Shown one piece after another: positions 1,229 to 48,991 of a stretch of 54,384 nucleotides of DNA. This DNA comes from a virus (lineage: Duplodnaviria > Caudoviricetes), in the IMG/VR virus record IMGVR_UViG_3300044809_000029, positions 1-54,384 of that record. One strand, written 5' to 3'. The notes beneath the pieces were generated by a model, which was given only the letters and a program-made list of their open reading frames with translations, ran no database searches and was not told where the DNA came from. The position numbers and the translations under genes are program-made. Each line of letters opens with the position of its first letter. The stretch's first letter is position 1.

Positions 1229-1419
1229 GCGGCCCTCCGTTCCAGGAAGTCACGCTTCAGCCGGGCCTGAGTCTCTGCGCTCTCACGCACCCGGTCCGCA
1301 ACGAACCGCTGGTACGCCTCACGCTGCTCCGGCTGGGCACCGAGGGGCAGGCTTGCCTGGAACGCCCCCTTCCTGGGGGAGCCTTTGCCGATGTTCGACG
1401 GCAGCACCGAGAAGGTCAC
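1225..1419 (-). CDS. Hypothetical protein
   Basis: GTG start overlaps the upstream stop. Confidence 0.55.
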   Translation of the reverse strand: MTFSVLPSNIGKGSPRKGAFQASLPLGAQPEQREAYQRFVADRVRESAETQARLKRDFLERRAA

Positions 1420-1613
1420 GCGGCCTCGCGCTCCTCGTAGAAGCGCATGGCCTCGACCCCGAAGTAGTCGGCGAGCTTCTTCGCGGTCGGCGCCTGCGGC
1501 ACGTCGCCGTCCTCGAGACGACGGATCGTCTGGCGCGCGACCCCGGTCGCCTCTGACAGCGCGCTGACGGTCAGCCCGCGGTTGATCCGCTCGGTGCGGA
1601 GGTCGAAGATCAC
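1416..1613 (-). CDS. XRE-family HTH protein
   Basis: LRTERINRGLTVSALSEATGVARQTIRRLEDG...KKLADYFGV. Confidence 0.85.
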   Translation of the reverse strand: MIFDLRTERINRGLTVSALSEATGVARQTIRRLEDGDVPQAPTAKKLADYFGVEAMRFYEEREAA

Positions 1614-1852
1614 GCCGCGATCCTTTGGCGATCGCGGTCGAACGGCCAGAGGTCCAGCGGCTTGACATCGAACGCAGACGCGATCTGGAATTGCACGCGC
1701 GGGCCGGGGATCCACCCGGCCTCAACCATGCGGATCGTCTTGCCGGACACCTGGGCGCGGAAGGCGAGGTCGTTCGGCGTCCAGCCGTGGTTGATCCGCA
1801 TCTCCATGAGCCGTAGGTGTGGGTTGCGGCGAGGAGCCTTAGGACTCGTCAT
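1610..1852 (-). CDS. Cro-like XRE HTH protein
   Basis: RINHGWTPNDLAFRAQVSGKTIRMVEAG; first gene of the divergent early operon. Confidence 0.85.
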   Translation of the reverse strand: MTSPKAPRRNPHLRLMEMRINHGWTPNDLAFRAQVSGKTIRMVEAGWIPGPRVQFQIASAFDVKPLDLWPFDRDRQRIAA

Positions 1853-1859
1853 GCGCCGA

Positions 1860-1916
1860 AAGGTAGCACAGAGTGCCGTTAGGGTGCAAGGGGAACCGCA
1901 CAGACTCGCTGTGCGG
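1860..1916. promoter_or_regulatory. Genetic switch: leftward promoter and palindromic operator
   Basis: Minus strand TTGCAC-N18-TACCTT, 7 nt before the Cro ATG; inverted repeat CCGCACAG-N5-CTGTGCGG at 1896-1916 and a GCACAG half-site at 1866. Confidence 0.6.
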
Positions 1917-1931
1917 GTGTATGTCCCAGCC

Positions 1932-2243
1932 GTGGACGACGCTCAACGGCTCCGAGCAGCCCGCGCCTGGGCCGACATCAGCCAGCCAGAACTAGGCCGG
2001 CGGATCGGGAGGCCGAACAAGAGCTACATCGCGCGACGCGAGGACGGGTCCTACGGGCTATCGGCGAGCGACAAAATCGCCATCGCTCACGCCTGCGGGT
2101 TGCCCGTCCAGTGGTTCTACGTCGACATCGTGGAGCTGCTCGCCGCTATCCCTCTCGAGGCACAAGCCGGAGGAGAGGTGCCTCGCCGCCTTCCGCCCGC
2201 CCCGCCCGCCGAAGGTCATGAGCAAGCTCCCGAAGGCGGTTGA
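1932..2243 (+). CDS. CI-like immunity repressor (XRE HTH)
   Basis: QRLRAARAWADISQPELGRRIG...YIARREDG; divergent from Cro-like genes; start uncertain. Confidence 0.75.
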   Translation: MDDAQRLRAARAWADISQPELGRRIGRPNKSYIARREDGSYGLSASDKIAIAHACGLPVQWFYVDIVELLAAIPLEAQAGGEVPRRLPPAPPAEGHEQAPEGG

Positions 2244-2361
2244 CGTCATCACCGGGGTCGAGCTCATCCGCCATAGCGTCAGCGGTCTGCGCGAGCACGC
2301 GACACGCGGCCTCGACCTGCTCGCGGCGAGTGTGATGGCGGGTAGCGATGCTCTGATCCAT
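2146..2361 (-). CDS. Small protein antisense to the repressor 3' end
   Basis: RBS-like AAGGGAG 8 nt upstream of ATG; helical composition. Confidence 0.5.
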   Translation of the reverse strand: MDQSIATRHHTRREQVEAACRVLAQTADAMADELDPGDDVNRLRELAHDLRRAGRAEGGEAPLLRLVPREG

Positions 2362-2598
2362 CGGCGATTCTCCCTTGGCGCTCCCCCGCGTGCCGGTCAG
2401 ATTCTTGCCCCATCAGGTCCAACGTGCGTGGTACCGGAAACCGGGCGCTTAGACACGCCAACCGCAGCCGAAAGTTCGCTACGAGCGGGAAACCCGCGTG
2501 AGACAGGGATTAGGTTGCTCATGCAACTACTGAGCCCCCGACGCGGGGGCGCCGGGGGCTCAAGACGTAGATGTCGGCGCAAGCACCCGCGTTACGGA

Positions 2599-3044: not shown

Positions 3045-3335
3045 TCACGCGAGCCGGAGGACGAGGATCACCAGCAGCACGAGCAGGACCGCCGCGATCA
3101 GCATCTCGACGAGCCCGTAGCCCGCCTGCCCCACGCGCGAGCGAGCGCGCAGTCGGGCCGTCGGAGTGACCTTCGAGCGCGCGTACTCCTGCGCCGCGAC
3201 CACGAGCACGCCGAGAGCAGCGGTGATGATCCCTCGCGTGCTTGCTCCGGCGAGGAACGCCTGAGCAGCAGCAGCGAACGCGGCGAGCGCGATGGGCACG
3301 AGGACCGCGCGGATGGGCTCCGTCTTCACGAGCAT
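3045..3335 (-). CDS. Holin-like protein (3 TM) with C-terminal prepilin-like motif
   Basis: Directly after the endolysin; two TMs, then YARSKVTP, then QAG-YGLVEML plus a hydrophobic helix. Confidence 0.75.
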   Translation of the reverse strand: MLVKTEPIRAVLVPIALAAFAAAAQAFLAGASTRGIITAALGVLVVAAQEYARSKVTPTARLRARSRVGQAGYGLVEMLIAAVLLVLLVILVLRLA

Positions 3336-3345
3336 GGATCGCCTC

Positions 3346-4035
3346 CTAGAGCTTCTTGGCTCGGTTGATGAGGTCTGAGATGTCGATCGCGCCCGGGTCC
3401 CAATGACCCGTCGGCTGAGCCGGCGCGTGCTGATGGCCCAGCCACCCCGAATACGCCGTCCACTCCGCAGGCGACAGACGCTTGACGTGCTTCGCGTCCG
3501 TGAACCTGACCGAGCACTTGAGTGGGTAGCCATTCGCCGCCAGGTACGCCATGACCCGCGCGACGTTCTGCTTCTGCTCAAGGGGCCATGCGGGCTGAGC
3601 CGCGAACGCGCACACCTCAATCTGGACGAGGTGCTTGCGGTTCGTCTCCACCGCCCCTGCCGGATGCTCAAGCGCGGTCGCCGCGTCGGTGATCGGCCGG
3701 TACTGCTTGATCTGGTCCTTCTTCTGCCCCACGAGGAAGTGCGGCTCGTCGCCGTTGGCTTTGAGCGTCCGGTCAGCTCCGGCGAAGTCGATGCCTTCCG
3801 TGGTGTGCAGGCACCCGGCCTTCGCTCCCATTGTGGAGGGGCCGATGCTCGTCACGGGGTCCTTGGCGACGCCGGGCATCCACGGGCCCTTCGCGGGCTG
3901 CTTCTTGGAGAGTCGTGCGACGGTGCGAGCGCTCTGCGTGACCGCGGCCTTCGCCAGCGCGAGCGCCTTTACGGCGGCGGTGAGAGCGGCGCGGCGGGCA
4001 GCGAGACGCGCCCGAGCTCGAGACAGTGCAGACAA
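3346..4035 (-). CDS. Endolysin, N-acetylmuramoyl-L-alanine amidase type 2
   Basis: LHTTEG, PHF, QIEV, GHQH, HWDPG Zn-amidase motifs. Confidence 0.85.
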   Translation of the reverse strand: MSALSRARARLAARRAALTAAVKALALAKAAVTQSARTVARLSKKQPAKGPWMPGVAKDPVTSIGPSTMGAKAGCLHTTEGIDFAGADRTLKANGDEPHFLVGQKKDQIKQYRPITDAATALEHPAGAVETNRKHLVQIEVCAFAAQPAWPLEQKQNVARVMAYLAANGYPLKCSVRFTDAKHVKRLSPAEWTAYSGWLGHQHAPAQPTGHWDPGAIDISDLINRAKKL

Positions 4036-4065: not shown

Positions 4066-4491
4066 CTACTTGCAGTTCAGGACGCGGAGCGCGTCGATCG
4101 TGCGCTGCTGGTTCTCGATGCCGTCACGGATCGACTTCGCAGGCAAGCCGAACGCGCCGTGGGGATGGTTCGTGAGGAACCTGATCCCACTGTCGACGCG
4201 CTGCTGAAGGTCATGACGCAACGCGCACAACGCGACCGTTGCCTGCTGGTTCTGACGGGCGAGCGACGCGCTCGTGCGGGCGAGTGCCGCGATCTTCGCC
4301 GTCTGCTCCTTCGACGGCTTATCCGAGAGTTGCTGGCCGAACACCCAGAACGCGACGATGCACGCGAGACCGATAGCGACGTACCCCTGCCAGTTCGACC
4401 GGCCGCGCTCACCCCGGCGGCCGCGTTCGCCCCGCTCCCCCTCATCACCGTGCTGGCCGTGATCGCCCGTCGGGCCGCGTTCGCCGCTCAT
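4066..4491 (-). CDS. Lysis-cassette membrane protein with N-terminal Gly-X-Y repeat and coiled coil
   Basis: GERGPTGDHGQHGDEGERGERG, one TM, two Cys in the extracellular part. Confidence 0.7.
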   Translation of the reverse strand: MSGERGPTGDHGQHGDEGERGERGRRGERGRSNWQGYVAIGLACIVAFWVFGQQLSDKPSKEQTAKIAALARTSASLARQNQQATVALCALRHDLQQRVDSGIRFLTNHPHGAFGLPAKSIRDGIENQQRTIDALRVLNCK

Positions 4492-4582
4492 GTTACCTCC
4501 AAGACCAAATAGAGCGCGAGCAGCAGCGTGGCCCACGACGCGGCCCAAGCGTGCCGGATCAGCACCCACCGAAGGGTCCGCA

Positions 4583-5005
4583 TCACGGCGAGCCCGGCGG
4601 TCTGAATCGCGGGCGAGAACTCTTCGATGGAGCTTCCGCCTCGTCCTCCCCGTCCGCCGTGGCCTCCGGCACCTCCGCCCGGGCCTTGGCCTCCCTGACC
4701 ACCTGCTCCGCCCGTTCCACCCTGGCCTCCTGCTCCAGAATGGCCGCGTTCGCCTCGGCTTCCCTGTCCGCCTCTGAACGTGTCGGGGGCGGCGTCATCA
4801 GGTCCAGAAGCGTCCGCAGCAACCCCAAGGGGCCCGGGGTCGGGCCGGCGTCCGCCCGGAACGCCGGGATCAACCCGAACAGGAACAGCGCCACGAACAC
4901 CCCAAGCGGGGAGGGGCTCGGCAGTTGCCAGAACTCGTGGTAGAGGAGCGCCGACCCGACCCCCAGAAAGAACAGGTCGCGAAGGCCCTTGCTGGTGACG
5001 TTCAC
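4583..5005 (-). CDS. Two-TM membrane protein (lysis cassette)
   Basis: RDLFFLGVGSALLYHE...VFVALFLFGLIPAFRAD; high GC3. Confidence 0.65.
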   Translation of the reverse strand: MNVTSKGLRDLFFLGVGSALLYHEFWQLPSPSPLGVFVALFLFGLIPAFRADAGPTPGPLGLLRTLLDLMTPPPTRSEADREAEANAAILEQEARVERAEQVVREAKARAEVPEATADGEDEAEAPSKSSRPRFRPPGSP

Positions 5006-5152: not shown

Positions 5153-5224
5153 GCTCGGTTACTGCAACGTCATCGCGCCGACCATGTGCGTCGGCACGCC
5201 GAACGAGGGGCTACCTTCCCGATC

Positions 5225-5755
5225 ATGAGAAAGATCCGTTTCCCACTCATCCTCGCCACAGCGATCCTGCTGAGCGGCGCCATGACCGCGACAGCCGCGA
5301 CTCTCATCACGGGCCGACAGGTCAAGGACGGCTCCCTCACGGGGAAGGACTTGAAGAACGGGTCGGTCACGCGCTCGGACCTCGCTGCGTCAGCACGTGG
5401 CCTCCGTGGCACGCAGGGCCCCGCTGGTCCGCAAGGCGCTCAGGGCGCTACCGGCGCGCAAGGACCGCAGGGTCCGACAGGTGGTCTCCTGCGCGGCACG
5501 GGTGGTGGAGCCGTCACGATCCCGCCCGGGGACGTTGGCTTGTCCGTCGCTGACTGCCCGAACGGCACGAACGCCGTCGGGGGCGGCTACAGCCTCCTGC
5601 CGCTCGCAGGGAACGGGCCCGTCACCGGCCTGGTCACCGACTCGAACCCAGCGAAGCTCGGTACCGCGTGGACCGTCACGGCGCGCAACGATGGCGCCGA
5701 CCCGATGATCCTCAAGACGACCGCAGTGTGCGTGACCGCGTTCGCGCAGCAGTAG
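5225..5755 (+). CDS. Secreted collagen-like protein (moron)
   Basis: Signal peptide, ITGRQVKDGSLTGKDLKNGSV repeats, G-X-Y run, C-terminal CP.G..AVGGGY...W domain. Confidence 0.8.
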   Translation: MRKIRFPLILATAILLSGAMTATAATLITGRQVKDGSLTGKDLKNGSVTRSDLAASARGLRGTQGPAGPQGAQGATGAQGPQGPTGGLLRGTGGGAVTIPPGDVGLSVADCPNGTNAVGGGYSLLPLAGNGPVTGLVTDSNPAKLGTAWTVTARNDGADPMILKTTAVCVTAFAQQ

Positions 5756-34883: not shown

Positions 34884-35870
34884 ATGTCGCAGGTAGACCG
34901 CAACTACCCAACGCGAGGCTCCGCTTCGGAGTCCACGTACTCGATCATGGAGTTCCTTCGGGAGTTCCCTGACGACAAGACGTGTCTGGACTGGCTATGG
35001 CGCAAGCGGTACTCCGAGGACGGCGAGCACGCCTACTGCTTCAAGTGCTCGAAGACCCGCAAGTTCCATCGCGTGAAGTCGCGGCCCTCGTATTCCTGCG
35101 ACCACTGCGGGCTGCACATTCACCCGACGGCCGGGACGATCTTCAACAAGTCCGCCACGTCGCTGCACTTGTGGTTCTACGCGATGTACCTGATGACGAG
35201 CACTCGCTGCGCGGTGTCCGCGAAGCACCTTGAGCGCGAGCTTGGCGTGACGTACAAGACCGCGTGGCGGATGGCGAACCGCATCCGCAACGTGCTCATG
35301 GACCAGGAGGACGAGCCGCCGCTGTCCGGTGAGGTTGAGGCCGACGAGACGTTCTTCGGCGGCAAGCCGCGCGCGGCTGAGACGCGCGCTCGTCGCAGGG
35401 GCCGGTCGCTGCACGCGCCGCAACCCAAGGTGCCGCCCGCGAAGCGCAAGACCGTCGTGTTCGGTGCCGTCGAGCGCGGCGGGCGGATCAAGGCGACGGT
35501 CGTGGCGGATAGTCGAGCGCACACACTCGGGCCGGTCGTGCGCCAGTACGTCATGCCGTCCTCGATCCTGTTCACGGACGAATGGAAGGGCTACATCGAC
35601 GTGGGCTACCGCTACCGGGAGCACCACCGGATCAAGCACTCCGAGGACGTGTACGTGAGCGGCAACGTCCACACGAACACCATCGAAGGTTTCTGGTCCA
35701 ACGTGAAGCGCGGCATCTCGGGCAACTACCACAACGTCTCCACGAAGTGGCTACAGGGCTACCTCAACGAGTTCTGCTGGCGCTGGAACCAGCGCAAGAG
35801 CGGAGACGGCCGCGCGATGTTCGAAGCGCTCGCGCTCCGCGCTGTGGACACGGCGCTGCCGTGGTCCTAG
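34884..35870 (+). CDS. IS1595-family DDE transposase
   Basis: Zn ribbon CFKC/CDHC; VEADETFFGG, FTDEWKGY, HTNTIEGFWSNVKR. Confidence 0.95.
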   Translation: MSQVDRNYPTRGSASESTYSIMEFLREFPDDKTCLDWLWRKRYSEDGEHAYCFKCSKTRKFHRVKSRPSYSCDHCGLHIHPTAGTIFNKSATSLHLWFYAMYLMTSTRCAVSAKHLERELGVTYKTAWRMANRIRNVLMDQEDEPPLSGEVEADETFFGGKPRAAETRARRRGRSLHAPQPKVPPAKRKTVVFGAVERGGRIKATVVADSRAHTLGPVVRQYVMPSSILFTDEWKGYIDVGYRYREHHRIKHSEDVYVSGNVHTNTIEGFWSNVKRGISGNYHNVSTKWLQGYLNEFCWRWNQRKSGDGRAMFEALALRAVDTALPWS

Positions 35871-39728: not shown

Positions 39729-39862
39729 CGGTGGACCTCCGAGTCGTGAGCGAGCACGCCCGCGATTTTCCCGCACGTACCGGACGCGTTCTGTGGAGTG
39801 CTCACGGAGGCTGGTCCCTACCAGGCTGCGGGTGGGCTGGACAGGTTAGACTCGCGCGCCTG

Positions 39863-41341
39863 GTGGCCCGGCCCTTGCGCTTGGACGAGATCGTGCGCGT
39901 CTCTCAACGCGGCGACCGTGAAGGCGACTCGTTCCGCAGTCCCGACCAGCAGCACGCCATTATCGCACGCTGGGCTGAGGCGAACAACGCCACGATCACC
40001 GCGCGCCACGAAGCGATCGACGTGAGCGGGAAGACGATGGACCGCGCGGACATTGACGCTGCCGTGGCGCGGATCCGGGCTGGGGAGAGCGACGGGATCA
40101 TCGTCGCCTGGTTGGACCGTTTCAGCCGCGCCCCGGTAGCTGAAGCCTTGAGGGTGTATGAGGACATCGCCGCTGCGGGGGGGCGAGTGATCGCGGTGGA
40201 TATGGCCGGGTTGGATCCGCGTGATCCGAGCGGGGAGCTTGCGCTGACGTTGAACTTGGGTGTGAACCGGATGCAGTGGCGTCGCGCTCAGGAGCGGTGG
40301 CGGATGAGTCAGGCGGACGCTGTCCGGGCGGGGAAGGCGATCGGCGGGGCGCCGTTCGGGTACCGGTTCCGCGACCCGACACCCAGGCCTCGCGGTGTCG
40401 GCGTCCTCGACTCCAGGTTGGTCGTGGAGCCCGGGGAGGCCGGGGTCGTTCGCGAGTTGTTCGAGCGCAAGATCGGTGGGGCGACGTGGCTGGAGCTCGC
40501 GCGGTTCCTTGATCTCGCGGCGCCACGCGCGGATGGGCGAACGTGGTCGAGGCAGACGGTGCAGGGCATGATCCGTAACCGCACGTATCTCGGGGAGGTC
40601 CGGTTCGGTGAGCATCACCGGGCTGACGCGCATGAAGCGATCGTGTCGCCGAGCGTGTGGCGGCGCGCTCAGCCCGCGCCGAGCCGGCGAACCCCGAGGG
40701 GCTCGTACCTGCTCACGGGGCTCGTTCGTTGCGCGGGGTGCGGTTGGAGGATGCTCGCCAACAGCGGCGGCCGGGAAGGCCCGAGGGTGTACGCGTGCCC
40801 GACGTTGGACTGCCCGGCGAAGTCGACGGTTCTCGTGCACCGACTCGATGAGGAGGTTGTCCGGCAGTTCTTCGAACACTTGGAGGACTTCAGCGTGCGG
40901 GAGGCGACCGGGGGCACGCTCGAGACGGCCCGGGCGTTGGTCGCGGAGCGGACTGCGGTCGTGGAGCGTCTCGCTGCGGTGGTGCCGTCGCATCCGGCGG
41001 CGGTCGCGGCGCACCAGGAGGCTCTGCGGGCGGCGGAGCGGGAGCTTGAGGAGGCGGAGGACGCGCTCGCTGGCGCGGCCCCGGTAGCTGGGCCGGAAGC
41101 GGGGGTGCTCCGGGAGGACTGGCCGGGATTGACGCTACCGGAGCGGCGCACGTTGATCGGGGCCGGGGTGGATGCGGTGCTGGTCAGGCGGGCGAGGTCA
41201 CGCGGCGCGCCGCACCGGCCGATCAGTGAGCGTGTCCTTGTCCTGTTCGCTGGGGACGCGCCCGAGGGGCTGCTCGAGCCGCGCGGGCTCACGGGGTGGG
41301 CCTGGGACGACGATCCAGGGTCGTTGCGTCCGGTCTCGTAG
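39863..41341 (+). CDS. Large serine recombinase (integrase)
   Basis: RVS catalytic Ser, DVSG, LDRFSR, PFGY, NRTYLG, HEAIV, LLTGLVRCAGCG Zn ribbon; start uncertain. Confidence 0.93.
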   Translation: MARPLRLDEIVRVSQRGDREGDSFRSPDQQHAIIARWAEANNATITARHEAIDVSGKTMDRADIDAAVARIRAGESDGIIVAWLDRFSRAPVAEALRVYEDIAAAGGRVIAVDMAGLDPRDPSGELALTLNLGVNRMQWRRAQERWRMSQADAVRAGKAIGGAPFGYRFRDPTPRPRGVGVLDSRLVVEPGEAGVVRELFERKIGGATWLELARFLDLAAPRADGRTWSRQTVQGMIRNRTYLGEVRFGEHHRADAHEAIVSPSVWRRAQPAPSRRTPRGSYLLTGLVRCAGCGWRMLANSGGREGPRVYACPTLDCPAKSTVLVHRLDEEVVRQFFEHLEDFSVREATGGTLETARALVAERTAVVERLAAVVPSHPAAVAAHQEALRAAERELEEAEDALAGAAPVAGPEAGVLREDWPGLTLPERRTLIGAGVDAVLVRRARSRGAPHRPISERVLVLFAGDAPEGLLEPRGLTGWAWDDDPGSLRPVS

Positions 41342-47023: not shown

Positions 47024-47760
47024 GCCGCCTTCTCCAGCTCGCTCGCTTCCATCGCCCGCTCAAGCGCGACCATCCACGATCCGAACCGCTGCCGGAGAAC
47101 CCCAATCGTTGGGGCTACCCCGCCTGTCGACCACTGTTCGTACTCCCTCGCGGCGGGCCAGTGACCAAGCTCCGCAGCGCAGTCCTCGAGTGCCATCAGC
47201 AAGCCGTCCTCGCTGATGCGGTTGCGGTAGACCTTCGGCCGGTTCTCCGCGACGACTCGCAGCCCGGCTGCGGCGACAACGTTCCGCCAGCTACCGAACC
47301 GCCAGATCATGGTCGGCCGTGATGGCATCGTCCCGCCGGACCGGCTTGCGGCGCTGTCGTAGTTGGTGCAGGACACGCGACCGTCGATCGCGACCGAGCG
47401 GATCGCCTCGAAGATCGCCTCGTTGGTCCATTGCACCTTTCCCGTGGCACGCGCCGCTGCGCCGCGCCGGCCTTCCATGCTTGCGAGGTGCGTCCTGTTG
47501 CAGCGACGGCAGCGCTTCGGGACGCCTCCGGCGATGTAGGACGTTGGGGCTCCGCAGTCGCCGCAGGTGCCGCCGTAGCGAGCCTTACGGGCCCGCGCTG
47601 CCTCGCCGGTGGGGTCGTAGTAGGCGCTCGTCACCGACGAGACGGCGACGCCCATCGTGTCCGCGATCTCCTTGAATGTGCAGCCCTGCTCCTTGAGGAG
47701 GCAGACCCATTCGTGGCGCTCGGCGCGGCGCATACGGACGCCGTTCGGGTTCGCACTCAT
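47020..47760 (-). CDS. HTH + Zn finger + homing-endonuclease-associated repeats
   Basis: TFKEIADTMGV; CGDCG...CRRC; two P....I/L..RFGSW repeats. Confidence 0.78.
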   Translation of the reverse strand: MSANPNGVRMRRAERHEWVCLLKEQGCTFKEIADTMGVAVSSVTSAYYDPTGEAARARKARYGGTCGDCGAPTSYIAGGVPKRCRRCNRTHLASMEGRRGAAARATGKVQWTNEAIFEAIRSVAIDGRVSCTNYDSAASRSGGTMPSRPTMIWRFGSWRNVVAAAGLRVVAENRPKVYRNRISEDGLLMALEDCAAELGHWPAAREYEQWSTGGVAPTIGVLRQRFGSWMVALERAMEASELEKAA

Positions 47761-48563
47761 GCGCCCGTCCCCGGCCACTGGCGGACGCTGATCGCGTCGA
47801 TGACCTCCTGCGGACTGATCCCCGCTAAGTAGTTCGCCGTCGTAGCCAGATTCGAGTGCCCCAACTGCCGGGACACGAGATGGATCGGCGTGCCCTCCCG
47901 AGCAAGCTCACAAGCATGGGCATGGCGAAGCTGGTGAGGCGCCATGCGATGCGGGATCTTCGCCCGGACCCGGAACGTCCTGAGCAGCCCCCGCACATAC
48001 GCCGGATGGACGCGGTTCCCCATCGACGGAGCGTTCACCGTGCAGAACAACGGCGACCCCTCCGGCACGCGAAGCATCGCCCGCACCATGAGCCAACGAC
48101 TGATCTCCAAGAGGCCGCCCTGGTCGATCCCCGACACGCGCCGCTTCGATCCCTTCCCCGACATCACGGTCACCGTCCGGTTCGTGAAGTCGATCTCGTG
48201 CGGCAGCAACGCGAGCGCCTCGCTGATCCTGAGCCCGCTCCGCCACAACGTCACGAGCAACGCCCGATTCCGCACCCCGCGCTTCGTCTTCGGATCGCAC
48301 AAGTCCAGGAGGCGGAGCATCTCCTCCGGCGACGGAGGAGAAGCCGGGAAGCGCTTCCCCTTGTTGCGAGGAGCGACGCCGGCGTTGTAGCCGGGCATCG
48401 TGATCGGGCTCCGGTAGCGGCCCGCAGGCGCGGCGTCAGCCGGGACGGTGAGCCCCGTCGCGGGGTCCTCGAGCCACTGCACTTGACGAAGCGGGAAGCG
48501 GCGCCACCGGGAGGTGTGGCCGACGAGCGTCACCTCGCCGCGGAGACGGACACGGGTCGTCAT
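47757..48563 (-). CDS. Tyrosine recombinase (catalytic domain with short N-terminal arm)
   Basis: SGLRISE, GKGSK, HQLRH, LGH, TANY. Confidence 0.92.
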   Translation of the reverse strand: MTTRVRLRGEVTLVGHTSRWRRFPLRQVQWLEDPATGLTVPADAAPAGRYRSPITMPGYNAGVAPRNKGKRFPASPPSPEEMLRLLDLCDPKTKRGVRNRALLVTLWRSGLRISEALALLPHEIDFTNRTVTVMSGKGSKRRVSGIDQGGLLEISRWLMVRAMLRVPEGSPLFCTVNAPSMGNRVHPAYVRGLLRTFRVRAKIPHRMAPHQLRHAHACELAREGTPIHLVSRQLGHSNLATTANYLAGISPQEVIDAISVRQWPGTGA

Positions 48564-48991
48564 GCTGCTGCCTCTCGTTCGGGAACCCACCGCTGACCGG
48601 ACAGGCGAAAGACGACGCTAAGCGGGTCGGAGTAGTGGGACTGCATGTGAGCGAGCTCCGCCTCGAACCCTCGGCCCGCTAGGTGCGGCAGGAGGTCGAG
48701 GCGGCCGTCGTCGAAGTCACGGTGATGACGGCGACACAACGCGATCACGCAGTCCGCGTGGTCGCAGCCTCGGAAGCTCCTCGGCGTCAAGTGCGCGGCG
48801 TCGCATTCCAGGCTCGCGCACTCGATCACCGTGCAGACCTGGACGCTGGTCTTCGCGCGCTGCTCCGGGCTCGCCGCCGTGAAGGAACGCCGGGGGCGCT
48901 GGCTCGCGCTGCGGAGCGGTGTCGGTTTCGCTGCGAACGTCGTGCCTCTGGCGAGGCTCTTGGCGCCGGCCTTGAGCGGGGAGCGCCTCAT
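48560..48991 (-). CDS. HNH-like nuclease (Nin/Ref-like)
   Basis: MRRSPLK; C...C...DAAHL...ALCRRHH..FD. Confidence 0.72.
   Translation of the reverse strand: MRRSPLKAGAKSLARGTTFAAKPTPLRSASQRPRRSFTAASPEQRAKTSVQVCTVIECASLECDAAHLTPRSFRGCDHADCVIALCRRHHRDFDDGRLDLLPHLAGRGFEAELAHMQSHYSDPLSVVFRLSGQRWVPEREAAA

Follow-up and report, generated by a model that had tools for sequence, protein, structure and literature searches.

Introduction

Holins are small membrane proteins that produce lethal lesions in the membrane at a programmed moment and respond early to energy poisons. The timing of holin action is usually ascribed to features intrinsic to the holin, such as dual translational starts, signal-anchor-release (SAR) helices or the attainment of a critical concentration. 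In the dual-start S105/S107 system, holin and antiholin forms are produced from one gene, while the S21-type pinholins, in which a weakly hydrophobic first transmembrane domain (TMD) is able to leave the membrane and which are paired with a SAR or secreted endolysin, provide the comparison for class II holins with two TMDs. Here we describe P0001, a putative holin of 96 aa encoded on the minus strand at positions 3045-3335 of a complete virus genome of 54,384 bp with direct terminal repeats (IMG/VR record IMGVR_UViG_3300044809_000029, the whole of which is called the window below). The protein carries an accessory C-terminal helix which, together with the coil that precedes it, resembles the class III signal of type IV prepilins. 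All of the evidence presented is computational.

The class III signal, which is cut by a prepilin peptidase (PilD) with frequent N-methylation, is defined as an N-terminal signal in which glycine or alanine at position −1 is critical, the length of the leader varies and the cut is followed by a helix of some 20-25 mostly hydrophobic residues, and prepilin processing requires no other protein (PMC4471445; PMC10191384). According to the latter source, alanine is also allowed at position −1 and the glutamate at position +5 (Glu5) is frequent yet not obligatory (PMC10191384).

Results

Architecture and predicted topology of P0001

The open reading frame (ORF) of P0001 extends from an ATG at 3335-3333 to a TGA at 3047-3045, and translation of this minus-strand segment gives exactly the linker and tail quoted in the initial annotation of the locus. 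A Shine-Dalgarno sequence, AGGAGG, lies 6 nt before the ATG (3342-3347, minus strand), where it overlaps the stop codon of the endolysin gene, and the GC content by codon position (0.76/0.48/0.87) is similar to that of the terminase gene (0.69/0.48/0.85). The gene therefore looks real, given this AGGAGG site, the coding-type GC content by codon position and the existence of 33 other members of the same protein family.

The protein was modelled with AlphaFold2 on a 29-row family alignment (mean pLDDT 77.6), which predicts three helices. Helix 1 (residues 6-28; 3252-3320, minus strand) is Ala-rich and weakly hydrophobic, with a mean Kyte-Doolittle hydropathy of 2.14, and helix 2 (residues 33-55; 3171-3239, minus strand) ends in a QEYARSKVTP box; both form part of the conserved core of the family. 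They are followed by a basic coil (residues 56-72; 3120-3170, minus strand), which is the leader-like stretch and contains the block of lowest confidence in the model (residues 61-70, pLDDT 58), and by helix 3 (residues 73-96; 3048-3119, minus strand), a look-alike of the prepilin alpha1N helix with a mean hydropathy of 3.26. Across the 14 family members with a third helix the corresponding means range from 1.4 to 2.2 for helix 1, from 2.1 to 3.2 for helix 2 and from 2.8 to 3.5 for helix 3. As the model assigns residues 56-72 to coil and residues 73-95 to helix, helix 3 begins exactly at Y73, the proposed +1 residue. The proposed scissile bond is preceded by Gln (−3), Ala (−2) and Gly (−1; G72, codon 3120-3122), and from Y73 to residue 93 the helix is hydrophobic except for E77 at position +5 (codon 3105-3107), after which the protein ends in R-L-A.

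With the linker taken as residues 49-74 (QEYARS...GQAGYG), lysine and arginine together number two in the N-terminal segment, one in loop 1, six in the linker, where they are set against a single acidic residue, and one after helix 3. By the positive-inside rule, P0001 is predicted to have its N-terminus in the cytoplasm, the loop outside, the linker in the cytoplasm and the C-terminus outside. The linker contains more basic residues than loop 1 in 14/14 of the third-helix members, although in P0011, P0023 and P0036 this stretch carries more acidic than basic charge. The two transmembrane segments and basic linker reported initially are reproduced by the model and the charge count, and the placement of the candidate site on the cytoplasmic side agrees with this charge-based prediction.

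The C-terminal tail resembles a class III signal

As had been claimed for the locus, P0001 shows each of the features that locally mark a class III signal, namely a hydrophilic stretch ending in Gly at −1, Tyr at +1, Glu at +5 and a helix with 21 hydrophobic residues. The Pfam N_methyl profile (PF07963) aligns in register, residues 69-92 corresponding to profile positions 3-26, with a score of 16.4 bits (E 0.0066), and in a six-frame search of the whole 54-kb genome the tail provides the sole match (18.6 bits, E 1.3e-4). The same profile matches none of 19 related phage contigs at E<=0.1; these contigs, of 25-46 kb, were chosen by a terminase identity of 56-70%. True N_methyl pilins of the candidate host order, which is considered below, score between 21 and 43 bits. 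The comparison with N_methyl proposed in the initial annotation upholds an in-register match that is unique within the genome, while leaving it under the score that the family requires.

A custom hidden Markov model (HMM), built on pilins of the candidate host order and spanning positions −10 to +24 of 58 distinct N-termini, yields in-register domain scores of 18.3 for P0008, 14.2 for P0003, 12.7 for P0001, 6.3 for P0011 and 6.1 for P0020, all of which carry the G/A at −1 and E at +5, whereas P0023, P0036 and all tails that lack this motif score around zero or below. In shuffles that keep the composition of linker and helix separate (block-preserving; 5000 for each protein), the observed score is reached in 0/5000 cases each for P0001, P0003 and P0008, in 1/5000 for P0011 and in 10/5000 for P0020. 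A search with this model over the six frames of the window (929 segments, 95,646 residues) ranks the tail first at 10.5 bits, the next segment scoring 1.5.

A profile-to-profile comparison with hhalign, in which the tails of the seven motif-bearing family members were set against the 58 pilins, gives a probability of 95.1% (P 3.4e-8, score 32.6) with an alignment that keeps G−1, the +1 residue and E+5 in register, while the two-helix core of the same proteins, used as a control, gives 2.7%. Shuffled profiles average 8.6 when all columns are permuted and 11.7 when the blocks are preserved, none exceeding 21.7, so that 0/300 shuffles of either kind reach the observed score; for the motif-less tails, taken as two groups, the scores are 17.4 and 19.9. 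At position −3, which played no part in the selection of the tails, the seven proteins carry E in five cases, Q in one and D in one, and the host-order pilins carry E in 47, Q in seven and D in two of the 58. As judged by these sequence measures, the resemblance of the tail to a class III signal is greater than expected by chance. A prediction of the complex between residues 50-96 of P0001 and PilD from a genome of the host order (G202) returned a score of 0.00; this run had no controls, gives no answer and counts neither way.

Distribution of the third helix and of the motif within the family

The family to which P0001 belongs was assembled by word-based and exhaustive profile searches and has 34 members including P0001, nearly all of them metagenomic and two of them ORFs read from loci; P0016, P0029 and P0032, which are long and contain many repeated weak stretches, were left out, as were P0024 and P0028, for which only the first part matches. 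The sample is small and the homologues are not independent. The conserved core comprises residues 1-58 and consists of an EPxR box, the Ala-rich helix, a G-x-x-T-R loop, the second helix and a QE-x-A-R-x-x-V-T-P box. A third, C-terminal helix is present in 14/34 members, and in seven of these 14 (P0001, P0003, P0008, P0011, P0020, P0023 and P0036) it is accompanied by G or A at −1 and E at +5. The residue at −1 is Gly in six of the seven and Ala in P0011, and P0020 has Gln at +1. Within these tails E+5, corresponding to E77 of P0001, is the sole invariant residue and the hydrophobic positions vary freely. Conservation of the −1 and +5 residues, which the initial annotation had made a test of its claim, proves to be divided, the pair being present in 6/13 of the other third-helix homologues and absent from 7/14 of the third-helix members overall.

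P0009, P0010 and P0011 share a short extension past the third helix, of the form D-A-x-A-A ... A-R-S-(S)-W, which occurs with or without E+5. This shared extension shows the third-helix module to be homologous whether or not the motif is present. The tree built on the core (34 rows of 59 columns) is poorly resolved; it places the seven motif-bearing members in at least three positions, with P0020 among two-helix forms (support 93/89) and P0023 and P0036 together with P0025. The tree does not decide between one and several origins of the motif, and its starred branches allow a single origin.

Putative holin identity and the lysis region

P0001 is a small membrane protein with three predicted helices that is encoded in a lysis cassette beside an endolysin, and it is this position, together with its size and layout, that supports a holin-type role. 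The endolysin gene, for an N-acetylmuramoyl-L-alanine amidase of the Amidase_2 type, lies directly upstream (3346-4035, minus strand). Its product scores 28.3 bits with Pfam PF01510 (cut-off 26) and matches PHROG 17214, annotated as 'endolysin', with an E-value of 5.5e-10, and in tblastn it resembles annotated endolysins of Streptomyces and Brevibacterium phages; judged by eye from the translation only, its N-terminus shows no clear signal or SAR helix. The family member directly follows an endolysin gene in 3/3 contexts, the endolysin being of the Amidase_2 type in the window and of the Phage_lysozyme type in the two other loci, L001 (a contig of the Solirubrobacteraceae metagenome-assembled genome (MAG) G001) and L008 (a metagenome contig), and genes for helix-turn-helix (HTH) regulators lie just beyond the family member in all three. 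Searches for the family yielded one locus among genome contigs (L001) and one among metagenome contigs (L008); among viral contigs, neither the family alignment nor the endolysin gave a match.

A distant member from Williamsia carries the UniRef label 'Holin'. P0001 itself matches no Pfam holin family (E<=1), no PHROG (E<=0.1) and, in tblastn, none of 50,697 phage records (E<=1); at the level of sequence it belongs to no described holin family. Its neighbours in the ESM Atlas reach a best score of 0.81, which is in the range of chance and uninformative. The designation as a holin made initially is consistent with genomic position, and P0001 is best regarded as a putative holin, or holin-type lysis membrane protein, in which the conserved part is a two-helix core with both termini predicted to lie in the cytoplasm (N-in/C-in). 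In L008, an ORF for 56 aa (2199-2369, plus strand) is found two genes after the two-helix homologue and encodes an N-terminal hydrophobic helix followed by a zinc-ribbon-like CxxC...CxxC tail. Where the family member has no third helix, this product may serve the phage as a distinct lysis partner with one TMD.

The P0001 gene follows that of the endolysin and closes a late block (operon) on the minus strand. Between it and a convergent ORF on the plus strand (2218-2901) there is a perfect GC stem of 9 bp with a 7-nt loop (2918-2942, no strand assigned), which is likely to mark the end of the late transcript; a scan for consensus terminators gave 0 terminator-like sites and did not call this hairpin, because it has no T run. 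The C-terminal third of the convergent ORF resembles a lipoprotein precursor, with a hydrophobic stretch ending in L-G-S-C and then about 75 residues, and no Pfam or PHROG match was found for it. It is possible that this ORF is a moron or encodes an exclusion lipoprotein, and its true start is probably internal.

Two further membrane proteins are encoded on the minus strand between the tail-fibre genes and the endolysin gene. The product of 4583-5005 has 140 aa, and its translation shows a pair of hydrophobic stretches and a C-terminal region that is long and charged. That of 4066-4569, of 167 aa, contains a run of Gly-X-Y that resembles collagen (Pfam Collagen, 23.9 bits, below the cut-off) and then one hydrophobic stretch. 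Both may be extra lysis or holin-like proteins. The block of minus-strand tail-fibre genes is interrupted by a plus-strand gene (5186-5755), whose product has a hydrophobic stretch at its N-terminus, contains a collagen-like repeat and is matched by tail-fibre families in PHROG (best E 4.6e-8).

The phage and its candidate host

The phage genome has a G+C content of 66-70% and no tRNA genes were found in its 54,384 bp; the virus record comes with no host genome. Its terminase is 45% identical to the counterpart in Streptomyces phage Kromp, and more than 2,600 relatives of this terminase occur in metagenomes. The genome encodes a large serine recombinase (with Resolvase, Recombinase and Zn ribbon domains; 39731-41341, plus strand), a tyrosine recombinase of the Phage_integrase family (47757-48590, minus strand) and three HTH_3/HTH_31 regulators (1416-2243), and the phage therefore looks temperate. 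An IS1595-family (ISXO2-like) DDE transposase (34884-35870, plus strand; 146.6 bits) adjoins the packaging genes. The phage is probably an uncultured, soil-type, actinophage-like virus of temperate appearance, whose host group is probably within the Actinomycetota and similar to the Thermoleophilia/Solirubrobacterales.

The sole member of the P0001 family borne by a cellular genome is that of the Solirubrobacteraceae MAG G001. Among the genomes sampled from the order of G001, Peptidase_A24 is found above the cut-off in 55/61 and N_methyl pilins in 34/41, often several of them beside the peptidase gene; both tallies take in one unpublished genome (G037), from which one of the 58 pilin rows used above may also stem (locus L039). 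Seven PilD sequences of this order share four invariant cysteines in the methylase domain and a GMGMGD box, a pattern which fits the bifunctional enzyme described in PMC10191384. One contig of G202 (C14) carries a prophage with a terminase 59% identical to that of the window; it also carries a pilin cluster, together with PilD and a PilM-like gene, at a distance of about 60 kb. In a second genome, G745, where the terminase is 62% identical, there is a short A24 match and no N_methyl pilin.

Genomes of this order, as at locus L051 on the same G202 contig (where PilD is an ORF of 252 aa; 1366-2124, minus strand) and in others, contain full clusters for type IVa pili that include PilM and a bifunctional PilD, and several of the pilins in these clusters read ...E-x-G|FTLIELLVVILIIGILAAIA. 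Such clusters are not often discussed in the Actinomycetota.

Discussion

Proposed mechanism and alternative explanations

We tentatively propose, with a confidence that stops somewhat short of even, that P0001 is a holin with an accessory tail that acts as a class III-type signal and is cut by the PilD of the host. A subset of the family would have gained a strongly hydrophobic C-terminal helix on top of the two-helix core, and in P0001 and six others this tail and the coil before it would copy the class III signal of the type IVa prepilins of the host group. P0001 would insert with its linker in the cytoplasm, and the bifunctional prepilin peptidase PilD of the host would cut after G72, the coil of 17 residues between helix 2 and the site leaving room for the enzyme. 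The expected products are a two-helix holin of 72 aa with a basic cytoplasmic tail, much like the protein that many relatives encode as such, together with a pilin stub of 24 aa that would stay in the membrane. With such a cut the maturation of the holin would depend on a host enzyme, and its possible effects include release of the holin from an anchoring or inhibitory helix, host-dependent maturation or an effect on pili. In this scheme we infer how the protein is oriented, which host it meets, that the cut takes place and any consequence for lysis timing or pili; the antiholin-to-holin switch put forward in the initial annotation is pure inference. A fuller version would make P0001 a 'pro-holin' matured by PilD through the first internal class III signal, leaving an active holin and a headless stub of 24 residues, possibly N-methylated, that enters or poisons pilus assembly, with a signal that derives from the host order's pilins, or is adapted to them, down to the Glu at −3; taken as a whole we hold this version to be unlikely.

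A number of observations weigh against cleavage by PilD, and many of them fit instead with a third helix that is an ordinary uncleaved accessory TM domain, serving as an anchor, an oligomerization surface or a charge that senses the membrane potential, the likeness to prepilins being then the relic of a captured fragment or the outcome of convergence. We regard this explanation, the main rival, as a realistic possibility, albeit one that is doubtful on balance. It accords with the fact that every Pfam score is sub-threshold: against a cut-off of 21.2 bits for N_methyl, P0001 falls below both in hmmscan (16.4) and in the six-frame search (18.6), P0008 and P0011 reach 14.5 and 12.9 bits, and P0003, the closest motif-bearing relative, has no N_methyl match at E<=10, nor do P0020 and P0023, in a scan of the relatives that left out P0035 and P0036. 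The only NCBIfam matches are to ComGE (14.8 bits, cut-off 49) and ComGC (9.5 bits, cut-off 75), a strict PROSITE-style pilin pattern fits 0/7 tails against 51/58 host-order pilins, and P0023 and P0036 have negative scores with the custom pilin HMM. The profile comparison is moreover partly circular, because the seven tails were picked for G/A at −1 and E at +5. By definition a class III signal is N-terminal, and here the motif is internal, behind two TM helices, with the cut falling at 72|73 of 96 residues.

The distribution of the tail points in the same direction. The third helix is absent from 20/34 members, among which the two-helix protein of L008 is verified by a stop codon of its own on a contig that continues beyond it, although some of the others may be cut or frameshifted, and the register is absent from half of the members that do have the helix (P0006, P0007, P0009, P0010, P0018, P0035 and the L001 ORF). 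The core function accordingly does not need the tail. An acidic residue follows soon after Gly in most of the motif-less third-helix variants, as in P0007 and the L001 ORF (GVSD), in P0035 (GEVD) and in P0010 (GQGELG), which suggests a general preference at the start of the helix. Where TM segments begin, it is common to find a turn rich in Gly, an aromatic residue at the interface and, close to the N-terminus of the helix, an acidic one. Against this explanation, no fewer than three sub-lineages keep the exact G/A−1...E+5 register although their hydrophobic positions vary, and the unselected −3 residue (E, Q or D) agrees with leaders of the host order. An ordinary TM helix is also at odds with the lack of pilin likeness in the two other helices (2.7%) and of any N_methyl match in the 19 related phage contigs, which likewise encode membrane proteins.

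The identity of the host bears on cleavage as well. In G001, a MAG that may be incomplete, neither Peptidase_A24 nor an N_methyl match was found, and its family member is a motif-less variant. A search for the family across 401 genomes of the same order identified G001 only at a convincing E-value, plus one weak match, and no family member was found in G202 or G745. The link to this host group is thus suggestive only. A constitutive peptidase would offer no obvious timer for lysis. Lastly, the literature searched contains no holin cut by a prepilin peptidase and no phage-encoded or internal class III signal, which is also in keeping with an uncleaved helix, a report elsewhere being possible.

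Two other explanations take the tail or the protein as a whole to serve a different purpose. One is that the tail mainly targets the type IV pilus of the host, cleaved or not, with the alpha1N-like helix and Glu5 docking so as to disable or retract pili near the time of lysis; this might, for example, spare the progeny from loss on the pili of dying cells. It would account for the invariance of a Glu5 that is dispensable for cleavage and needed for the assembly of pilins (PMC4471445; PMC10191384), and a precedent is offered by PfsE, a membrane protein of small size by which a phage inhibits type IV pili (PMC8764522). We nevertheless consider it very unlikely. Nothing indicates that the phage of P0001 uses pili, a stub of 24 aa has no head domain, its later helix positions are unlike those of host-order pilins, and many relatives have no tail at all. 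As the last gene of a late operon, moreover, P0001 cannot protect a lysogen, so the proposal in the initial annotation that the peptide jams the pilus to prevent superinfection fits poorly with the gene order.

The other is that P0001 is an antiholin, a lysis regulator or an unrelated membrane protein and that the real holin is the product of 4583-5005 or of 4066-4569. In its favour, no Pfam holin family and no PHROG is matched by P0001, the product of 4583-5005 (140 aa) has its pair of hydrophobic stretches and its long charged C-terminal region, and actinophage cassettes can hold two cooperating holin-like proteins (bioRxiv 10.64898/2025.12.04.692442). This too seems improbable to a high degree, given that the family stays directly after the endolysin across two endolysin types, that the size and two-helix layout of P0001 are typical of class II holins and that the distant Williamsia member is named 'Holin' in UniRef. 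A holin with an accessory tail that is cut by PilD remains our preferred, if tentative, reading of the locus.

Implications

If cleavage is real, control by a prepilin peptidase would be a new mode of holin control. A holin that requires a membrane protease of its host would offer the phage a new means of reading that host, and the competence for lysis would be coupled to a machine of the host envelope. The substrate rules of prepilin peptidases would extend to internal sites in polytopic proteins, which would affect the prediction of class III signals in genomes, and the released stub would constitute a natural minimal alpha1N peptide for studying how pilins are recognized by their machinery. 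Even with no cleavage, the family would represent a previously undescribed group of holin-like proteins from abundant uncultured actinophages with a C-terminal helix that is gained and lost as a module.

Comparison with known systems

The tail of P0001 shares with the class III signal of type IV prepilins a hydrophilic stretch that ends in Gly, a run of 21 hydrophobic residues in a helix that starts at +1, and Glu at +5. Its leader-like stretch is predicted to be cytoplasmic, and the tail aligns in register with N_methyl and with the pilins of the host order, including their Glu at −3. It differs from prepilins in that the signal is found at residues 56-96, behind two TM helices, with a sub-threshold score, in the absence of a globular head, only three residues following the helix, and in the +1 residue, which in the tails is Tyr, Gln or Leu rather than Phe. 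Two other kinds of signal were considered and rejected. A Flp/Tad-type signal does not suit the tails, as Flp1_like reaches 13.9 bits in P0008 and 12.9 bits in P0020 against a cut-off of 33.5 and the Glu-Tyr pair of Flp pilins is missing. Sortase, rhombosortase or other C-terminal sorting signals require that the segment ahead of them lie outside the cell and that a basic tail lie within it, and the charge pattern of P0001 is the reverse.

Among holins, P0001 resembles the class II proteins with two TMDs and an N-in/C-in topology, such as LysF1a of the F1-cluster mycobacteriophages (bioRxiv 10.64898/2025.12.04.692442), in its small size, its two-helix core with predicted N-in/C-in topology, its place in a lysis cassette and its Ala-rich, weakly hydrophobic helix 1; unlike these proteins it adds a third helix, and no sequence relationship to them was detected. 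The partner of LysF1a, LysF1b, contains just one TMD, situated at the N-terminus, with an N-out/C-in topology according to the same text. A fusion of a two-TMD and a one-TMD protein of the LysF1a/LysF1b type was rejected on this ground, since the tail of P0001 is predicted to run N-in/C-out, and so it is not simply a fused analogue of LysF1b.

PfsE of the Pf filamentous phage is, like the tail, a very small hydrophobic phage peptide, one that is proposed to act against the type IV pilus machinery (PMC8764522). It differs in being the product of a separate gene of a non-lytic phage that acts in superinfection exclusion, and it is neither pilin-like nor part of a holin. As in the S105/S107 system, P0001 would give two forms of a membrane protein from one lysis gene; unlike the alternative starts of S105/S107, these forms would result from cleavage by a host protease and would differ on the C-terminal side.

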